This document shows, piece after piece, positions 29,357 through 30,052 of a stretch of 64,000 nucleotides of DNA. The notes under the pieces are model-generated. The model did not search any database, had not been told where the DNA came from, and saw only the letters and a program-made list of their open reading frames with translations. Both the position numbers and the translations under genes were made by a program. Location: the NCBI RefSeq assembly GCF_003334815.1, contig NZ_QOWO01000025.1; one strand, given 5' to 3'. How positions within the stretch are numbered: the first letter of the stretch is position 1; each line of letters starts with the position of its first letter. This stretch comes from Escherichia coli. Its GTDB lineage: Bacteria > Pseudomonadota > Gammaproteobacteria > Enterobacterales > Enterobacteriaceae.

Positions 29357-29385
29357 TTGACGCTGCAAGGCTCTATACGCATAAT
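29357..29385 (+). promoter_or_regulatory. Putative sigma70 promoter of the tRNA operon with GC-rich discriminator
   Basis: TTGACG -35, 17-bp spacer, CATAAT -10, followed by gcgccccgc discriminator typical of stringently controlled stable-RNA promoters; about 40 nt upstream of first tRNA. Confidence 0.5.
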
Positions 29386-29425: not shown

Positions 29426-29502
29426 GGCTACGTAGCTCAGTTGGTTAGAGCACATCACTCATAATGATGGGGTCACAGGTTCGAATCCCGTCGTAGCCAC
29501 CA
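29426..29502 (+). tRNA. metT: tRNA-Met (elongator, anticodon CAU)
   Basis: GGCTACGTAGCTCAGTTGGTTAGAGC ... GTCGTAGCCACCA; cloverleaf with CAT anticodon and encoded CCA. Confidence 0.93.
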
Positions 29503-29511
29503 TCTTTTTTT

Positions 29512-29596
29512 GCGGGAGTGGCGAAATTGGTAGACGCACCAGATTTAGGTTCTGGCGCCGCAAGGTGTGCGAGTTCAAGTCTCGCCTCCCGCACCA
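29512..29596 (+). tRNA. leuW: tRNA-Leu (anticodon UAG), long variable arm
   Basis: GCGGGAGTGGCGAAATTGGTAGACGC ... CTCGCCTCCCGCACCA; 85 nt with variable arm. Confidence 0.92.
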
Positions 29597-29619
29597 TTCA
29601 CCAGAAAGCGTTGTACGGA

Positions 29620-29694
29620 TGGGGTATCGCCAAGCGGTAAGGCACCGGTTTTTGATACCGGCATTCCCTGGTTCGAATCCAGGTACCCCAGCCA
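29620..29694 (+). tRNA. glnU: tRNA-Gln (anticodon UUG)
   Basis: TGGGGTATCGCCAAGCGGTAAGGCACCGGTTTTTGATACCGG...CCCCAGCCA. Confidence 0.92.
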
Positions 29695-29709
29695 TCGAAG
29701 AAACAATCT

Positions 29710-29786
29710 GGCTACGTAGCTCAGTTGGTTAGAGCACATCACTCATAATGATGGGGTCACAGGTTCGAATCCCGTCGTAGCCACCA
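29710..29786 (+). tRNA. metU: tRNA-Met (elongator, anticodon CAU), second copy
   Basis: Identical to 29426..29502. Confidence 0.93.
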
Positions 29787-29833
29787 AATTCTGAATGTGT
29801 CGAATATGTTCGGCAAATTCAAAACCAATTTGT

Positions 29834-29908
29834 TGGGGTATCGCCAAGCGGTAAGGCACCGGATTCTGATTCCGGCATTCCGAGGTTCGAATCCTCGTAC
29901 CCCAGCCA
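29834..29908 (+). tRNA. glnV: tRNA-Gln (anticodon CUG)
   Basis: TGGGGTATCGCCAAGCGGTAAGGCACCGGATTCTGATTCCGG...CCCCAGCCA; anticodon CTG is wild type, not the supE CTA allele. Confidence 0.92.
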
Positions 29909-29912
29909 CATT

Positions 29913-29939
29913 AAAAAAGCTCGCTTCGGCGAGCTTTTT
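29913..29939 (+). terminator. Rho-independent terminator of tRNA operon
   Basis: aaaaaagctcgc-ttcg-gcgagcttttt. Confidence 0.75.
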
Positions 29940-29959
29940 GCTTTTCTGCGTTCATTCAA

Positions 29960-30052
29960 TGTCGAATGCGATGTTGACACGTCTTATCCTTCAATGTCGG
30001 ATGCGACGCTGCCGCGTCTTATCCGACCTACGGTTGGCACGCATCCGGCAAT
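29960..30052. repeat. REP-like palindromic units
   Basis: gtcggatgcgacgctgccgcgtcttatccgacctac and related half-sites. Confidence 0.7.

Follow-up and report, generated by a model that had tools for sequence, protein, structure and literature searches.

The metT tRNA operon of an Escherichia coli clone has genuinely lost one of its two tandem Gln(CUG) genes, whereas the loss of one Gln(UUG) gene that accompanies it in a single assembly of that clone is most likely an assembly collapse, absent from the organism. Both losses are read in the stretch of DNA analyzed here (the window), which is the last 64 kb of the 67320-nt contig QOWO01000025.1; its right end is the contig end. We consider it probable that one loss is real and the other a collapse artefact because sister assemblies disagree with the window over Gln(UUG), the five-gene sequence is a legal path through a k=77 assembly graph, and public records with a single Gln(UUG) gene show batch structure.

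The window contains a metT operon with five tRNA genes

The first-pass annotation of the window had described five genes in the order Met, Leu, Gln(UUG), Met, Gln(CUG), with their own promoter and terminator, and had proposed tRNA gene prediction and alignment to MG1655 as checks. ARAGORN, Rfam, and consensus scans agree with that description. ARAGORN predicted five tRNA genes in the entire 64-kb window, all on the plus strand, and between 29000 and 30100 Rfam returned the same five tRNA matches and no other family (Table 1). A GC-rich stretch follows the promoter-like site. The operon sits between asnB and ubiF on the asnB strand, as placed by open reading frames and by the annotation of MG1655 and of a record with 100% identity across the 1501-bp region of the operon.

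Table 1. Features of the metT operon and of the contig end, with positions in the window
Feature	Position	Strand	Basis	Sequence
Predicted promoter-like site, sigma-70-like (TTGACG, 17 nt, CATAAT)	29357-29385	+	Consensus scan, 10/12; same as MG1655 upstream of metT	
metT, elongator tRNA-Met(CAU)	29426-29502	+	ARAGORN; Rfam RF00005, 71.1 bits; identical to MG1655	
leuW, tRNA-Leu(UAG)	29512-29596	+	ARAGORN; Rfam; identical to MG1655	
Single tRNA-Gln(UUG), glnU/glnW equivalent	29620-29694	+	ARAGORN; MG1655 alignment	
metU, elongator tRNA-Met(CAU), 78-nt perfect repeat of metT	29710-29786	+	ARAGORN	
Single tRNA-Gln(CUG), glnV/glnX equivalent, wild-type anticodon	29834-29908	+	ARAGORN; MG1655 alignment	
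Predicted intrinsic terminator: GC stem, TTCG loop, T-run	29914-29949 (stem-loop and T-run 29914-29939)	+	Terminator scan; identical to MG1655	
glnU-glnW spacer, skipped with the 109-bp unit			MG1655 alignment	TCTTCTTCGAGTAAGCGGTTCACCGCCCGGTTAT
glnV-glnX spacer, skipped with the 112-bp unit			MG1655 alignment	ATTTATTCAAGACGCTTACCTTGTAAGTGCACCCAGT
IS10/ISVsa5-like element, first 77 nt, inserted in ybeF; contig end	63924-64000	+	IS boundary at 63924	

Location, gene order, and tRNA sequences are those of the K-12 metT operon, and the putative sigma-70 promoter and Rho-independent terminator are consensus matches identical to K-12. The tandem glnU-glnW and glnV-glnX pairs of a seven-gene operon were not found, and five genes are present. 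Judged by its sequence, the window carries a functional metT operon of the canonical E. coli type, in which one copy represents each Gln pair. For the metT operon, a Rho-independent terminator and a processing pathway that uses RNase E and RNase P have been described (PMC2241853). By analogy with K-12, the five genes would be made as one polycistronic transcript from one promoter, ended at one intrinsic terminator, and processed by the same two enzymes. Between the terminator and ubiF, at 29955-30024, lie two tandem 35-nt REP-like units that are 85% identical; they look like an ordinary REP/BIME-type element.

Two exact repeat units separate the window from MG1655

The metT operon of MG1655 has seven genes, as the first-pass annotation had stated for K-12, with two copies of each Gln gene where the window has one. 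In the alignment, the window lacks two pieces of MG1655: exactly 109 bp, corresponding to one Gln(UUG) gene plus a 34-nt spacer, and exactly 112 bp, corresponding to one Gln(CUG) gene plus a 37-nt spacer. The reading that each Gln pair is down to one copy in this sequence is therefore correct, as is the statement that the CUG anticodon is wild type and not supE. Beyond these two units, a single SNP in the metU-glnV spacer is all that differs; locus, gene order, promoter, terminator, and all tRNA sequences are the same.

The copies involved are perfect repeats of 77 nt for glnU/glnW, 77 nt for glnV/glnX, and 78 nt for metT/metU. The 109-bp deletion falls somewhere within the 77-nt perfect repeat at 29620-29696, and the 112-bp deletion within that at 29832-29908. 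Each removes exactly one unit, with breakpoints in perfect direct repeats and no filler. An exact-unit deletion of this kind fits recombination or slippage and assembly collapse alike, and sequence alone cannot tell them apart, because an assembler that skips the loop between identical copies yields the same sequence.

Sister assemblies and reads share the Gln(CUG) loss

Three sister contigs of the clone (CBDBYT010000027.1, DABAWY010000022.1, and DABDQN010000023.1) have a chiP-to-rlpA distance of 43239, which is 109 bp more than in the window. For QOWO01000025.1 (GCA_003334815.1), the chiP-to-rlpA distance of 43130 and the chiP-to-contig-end distance of 47181 both equal the window values, and every piece of this contig that was compared agrees with the window letter for letter. 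Taken from gene coordinates, the sister excess is exactly one Gln(UUG) unit and neither +112 nor +221; by the same coordinates, the 112-bp Gln(CUG) unit is absent from all four of the ~67-kb draft contigs measured across the operon. Every piece of the sister contigs that was compared (chiP and rlpA) matches the window exactly, and these contigs stop at or near the right-hand IS junction of the window.

The graph behind Logan contigs has k=31, and no 31-mer can occur in it twice (PMC12424806). With a single Gln(CUG) gene, the contig is predicted to stop 30 nt into metU at a length of 34195 nt, while with a tandem pair it would stop 30 nt into the distal copy at 34073 nt. Contig ERR271227_12, identical in four samples, is 34195 nt long; since its 31-mers are unique, it therefore runs through a single Gln(CUG) gene.

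The Gln(CUG) loss was thus reproduced in independent assemblies and reads of the clone. We conclude that the single Gln(CUG) copy is genuine, inherited by the whole clone, and a fairly common strain variant. The 112-bp loss is a real deletion between the identical 77-nt repeats of glnV and glnX, which arose by homologous recombination or replication slippage.

The Gln(UUG) loss is probably an assembly collapse

Of the four clone contigs measured, only the source of the window lacks the 109-bp Gln(UUG) unit, and the loss was not reproduced in the three independent sister assemblies, each of which is 109 bp longer. Because the excess equals the unit exactly, we infer from the coordinates that it is a second Gln(UUG) gene.

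The ends of the source contig bear on how it was assembled. At its right end, the contig stops 77 nt into the IS10/ISVsa5-like element, whose end sequence is multi-copy in 1876 genomes and is annotated with an adjoining IS4-like ISVsa5 transposase. At its left end, it reaches ~77 nt further than the DABAWY and DABDQN contigs do. A de Bruijn contig ends exactly k bases inside a repeat, and the default largest k of SPAdes for 150-nt reads is 77. These contig ends suggest that the source assembly was built on a k=77 graph.

The operon sequence is compatible with a collapse on such a graph. Every operon word of up to 78 nt also occurs in a seven-gene relative. Of the 79-nt words, only the two that span the junctions, starting at 29619 (29619-29697) and at 29831 (29831-29909), are missing from it. 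The five-gene sequence is a valid graph walk of a seven-gene genome at k<=77. For Gln(UUG), the path is legal at k=77 and illegal at k=78 because glnU and glnW share exactly one 77-mer. With tandem-repeat collapse in de Bruijn assemblies, the window therefore shares both a legal path at k up to the repeat size and a contig end k bases into a repeat, and a collapse is the likely explanation here. A walk through the k=77 graph could skip the 34-nt inter-copy spacer and merge glnU and glnW into one gene.

Such a collapse is possible but not obligatory, as a good assembler with reads of at least 100 nt can thread a 77-nt repeat. It is also possible that the four assemblies come from different isolates of the clone and that the source isolate carries a private, genuine Gln(UUG) deletion. 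The contracted layout creates spurious ORFs of its own (115, 112, and 53 aa), and exact look-ups of these returned nothing on record. We consider the Gln(UUG) loss most likely to be an assembly collapse.

These results divide the interpretation offered by the first-pass annotation. Loss of one copy of each Gln tRNA holds for Gln(CUG), in all clone assemblies and the Logan contig, but probably not for Gln(UUG), given the three longer sisters. The operon does mark a distinct lineage through its clone-wide Gln(CUG) loss, but not through the Gln(UUG) loss, which the sisters do not share. Repeat collapse, named there as an artefact to exclude, is likely for Gln(UUG) from the k=77 signature and the sister assemblies, and does not apply to Gln(CUG).

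Markers and relatives of the clone

ChiP Q153H (window 17767) and RlpA A100V (60247) were each found in nine contigs, and the YbeF::IS fusion peptide in one, in a look-up that covered a collection of 153 billion gene positions. No marker-bearing contig exceeded 200 kb, and the clone is therefore represented only by draft and Logan assemblies. The two substitutions are useful clone markers. Sequencing runs that belong to the clone are ERR271227, SRR3823859, SRR3951465, SRR10357323, and ERR14335422. A third SNP, at 37988 in gltI and within reach of the operon, was set aside as a marker because it is synonymous. The IS10/ISVsa5-like insertion lies in ybeF, a LysR-type regulator gene, and creates a 66-aa YbeF::IS fusion ORF at 63761-63961; a search for the ybeF::IS junction in 5426 complete genomes gave no match.

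A structural comparison came from CFS3292, a close seven-gene relative that is colinear with the window over ~63 kb with 12 mismatches and differs from it structurally only by an ISApl1 insertion and the two tRNA units. The ISApl1 copy of CFS3292 lies between kdpE and speFL (window ~5544), where the window has none. NCTC9100 also has seven genes, and ten 24-kb matches differ from the window at 2 positions.

Seven genes are the norm among complete E. coli genomes

We surveyed 5426 complete E. coli genomes for the tandem junctions of the operon. The glnU-glnW junction was present in 5342/5426 and the glnV-glnX junction in 5268/5426; since each tandem junction is present in nearly all genomes, seven genes are the norm. 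In 143/5426 genomes (2.6%), Gln(CUG) occurs as a single gene in its proper context, at 99-100% identity. This allele tracks lineages; among its carriers are the reference strain E24377A, a coherent porcine ETEC clade, O139:H1 strains, and one experimental clone series. In E24377A and the porcine ETEC clade, metU, spacer, single Gln(CUG), and terminator of the natural allele follow one another without interruption, as they do in the window.

A single Gln(UUG) gene in context was found in 71/5426 genomes (1.3%) and tracks submission batches: 25 of the 60 matches listed came from two projects (14 AVS and 11 GF). The K-12 laboratory derivatives MG1655p, ME8067, AS19, and Origami2 were among the single-Gln(UUG) matches listed. 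Unlike most of the 143 natural single-Gln(CUG) genomes, of which only 20 also have the single-Gln(UUG) context, the window shows one Gln(UUG) gene. The uninterrupted segment of leuW, Gln, metU, Gln, and terminator occurs in 20 genomes, compared to 1.9 expected under independence (~11x). Seven of these 20 carry [Met-Leu-Gln]x3, so the plain five-gene layout is found in 13 genomes. Both five-gene genomes with published methods (n=2) were assembled with the Unicycler hybrid approach.

The survey also returned layouts longer than the standard operon. TUM2805 (NZ_CP128950.1, 3248383-3249433) reads [Met-Leu-Gln(UUG)]x3-Met-Gln(CUG), with eleven tRNA genes, and match counts indicate the same x3 layout in GF130, GF8, GF161, GF153, GF54, and STK78-E, which come from a few submission batches. 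The layout may have arisen by true amplification or from an assembly loop that was traversed wrongly. In K-12 GM4792 and in H1827/12, matches of ~350 nt at 88% identity span both triplication probes, that for Gln(UUG) and that for Gln(CUG), and their annotation gives four tRNA-Gln genes in tandem, which suggests runs of Gln genes without an intervening metU.

Collapsed tRNA arrays occur in public genomes

Some complete records contain an operon that is shorter still. MC1061 (NZ_CP195014.1), GF47 (NZ_CP172169.1), AVS0947 (NZ_CP124460.1), and IPCEC48 (NZ_AP026794.1) have Met and Gln(CUG) only, and IAL7250 (NZ_CM130729.1) has Met and two Gln(CUG) genes; none of the five records holds a Gln(UUG) or Leu(UAG) gene. 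Under the wobble rules, an anticodon with C34 cannot read CAA. The tRNA sets of these five records could not decode CAA or CUA and are impossible sets. DH10B, presumably a finished genome descended from MC1061, has all seven operon genes; if that descent is right, the two-gene MC1061 record therefore cannot reflect the ancestral strain. The other genes of the metT operon have been treated as essential tRNA genes (PMC6265465).

As a control, synthetic contracted versions of the unlinked alaWX, glyVXY, and metZWV arrays were used as whole-array probes with 250-nt flanks against the 5426 complete genomes, with wild-type K-12 scoring <=813 bits and contracted arrays >=1064 bits. Spacer probes for the three-to-two contraction of glyVXY and metZWV were rejected as non-discriminating, the two spacers of each array being nearly identical. 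At least one contracted ala, gly, or initiator-met array was detected in 415/5426 genomes, and an array collapsed to a single copy in 238/5426 (4.4%), including the K-12 derivatives MG1655p, J53, C3026, DH5a, and C600. Of the 20 genomes of the five-gene type, at least 6 were among the single-copy-array matches listed, compared to the 4.4% base rate (p ~1.5e-4), and the MC1061 record shows collapse of each of the three control arrays as well. Triplication of a Gln or Ala array was found in 107 genomes. Genuine expansion and contraction of tandem tRNA arrays clearly occur beside artefacts.

Alternative explanations of the two losses

A less likely account, which we nevertheless take seriously, is that both losses are genuine: the clone lost one Gln(CUG) gene and the source isolate then lost one Gln(UUG) gene, leaving one gene per isoacceptor. 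The five-gene set retains all four anticodons and is thus complete and viable, and the plain five-gene layout is read in 13 complete genomes. Array copy number also varies commonly, with 143 single-Gln(CUG) genomes and 107 genomes with triplications; variation by one copy among strains has been reported (PMC4539685), and recombination between metT and metU has been seen on a plasmid (PMC5400242). Against this account, the 109-bp unit is still there in three sister assemblies of the clone, and the k=77 signature of the source contig makes a collapse possible. The prior for a private Gln(UUG) deletion is <=~1.3%, itself inflated by batch artefacts, and the ~11-fold excess of double contractions over independence co-occurs with collapse of unlinked arrays. 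In a more specific form, both losses would be genuine in a natural phylogroup-A isolate, and the excess of double contractions would be partly biology, for instance selection for balanced Gln isoacceptor dosage; we find this unlikely.

A second alternative is that both losses are artefacts in an organism with the standard seven genes. Since each Gln pair is a perfect repeat of 77 nt, the two could collapse equally well at k<=77, and collapsed forms of the operon do exist among public "complete" genomes. For Gln(CUG), however, this alternative is contradicted by the sister assemblies and the Logan contig: the 112-bp unit is missing from 4/4 draft assemblies, and the k=31 contig passes Gln(CUG) at the exact single-copy size. 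We believe that at least two different assemblers are represented, judging from accession styles and contig-end behaviour, with the DAB-prefixed assemblies taken to be SKESA builds from the NCBI Pathogen Detection pipeline. Three of the assemblies resolve the equally difficult Gln(UUG) pair, and the single-Gln(CUG) allele tracks lineages such as the porcine ETEC clade and E24377A. A double artefact is accordingly very improbable. The idea that five genes are ancestral and that K-12 gained the duplicates, which has nothing specific in its favour, was rejected as next to impossible, given the presence of the Gln(UUG) and Gln(CUG) junctions in 5342/5426 and 5268/5426 genomes across all lineages and the seven genes of relatives that are ~12 SNPs away in 63 kb.

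Precedents and biological significance

Loss of a tandem tRNA copy has a classical precedent in the tyrT-tyrV operon, where one tandem tyrosine tRNA gene was reportedly lost by unequal recombination, as Russell et al. are said to have shown genetically in 1970. That operon is a different one, with a longer spacer than those of the window. Another parallel is the derivation of pUST314 from pUST313 in Salmonella by spontaneous recombination between identical tRNA genes of the metT operon (PMC5400242). As in the window, the deletion took precisely the stretch that separates two identical tRNA genes and left one hybrid copy. Unlike in the window, metT was joined to metU and leuW-glnU-glnW was removed, a product that on the chromosome would have no tRNA to decode CAA and CUA.

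Where tandem tRNA arrays consist of perfect repeats of 77-94 nt, neither draft assemblies nor even "complete" RefSeq assemblies represent them reliably. As these arrays are both polymorphic and error-prone, claims about their copy number need read-level support. The operon described here represents a known kind of variation, a difference of one tandem tRNA copy (PMC4539685), in an allele that is already present in public genomes, to which a probable collapse has been added. Its biological weight is small: the tRNA set is complete, and the Gln tRNA genes, which more likely fell from four to three than from four to two, would number two only if both losses were real.
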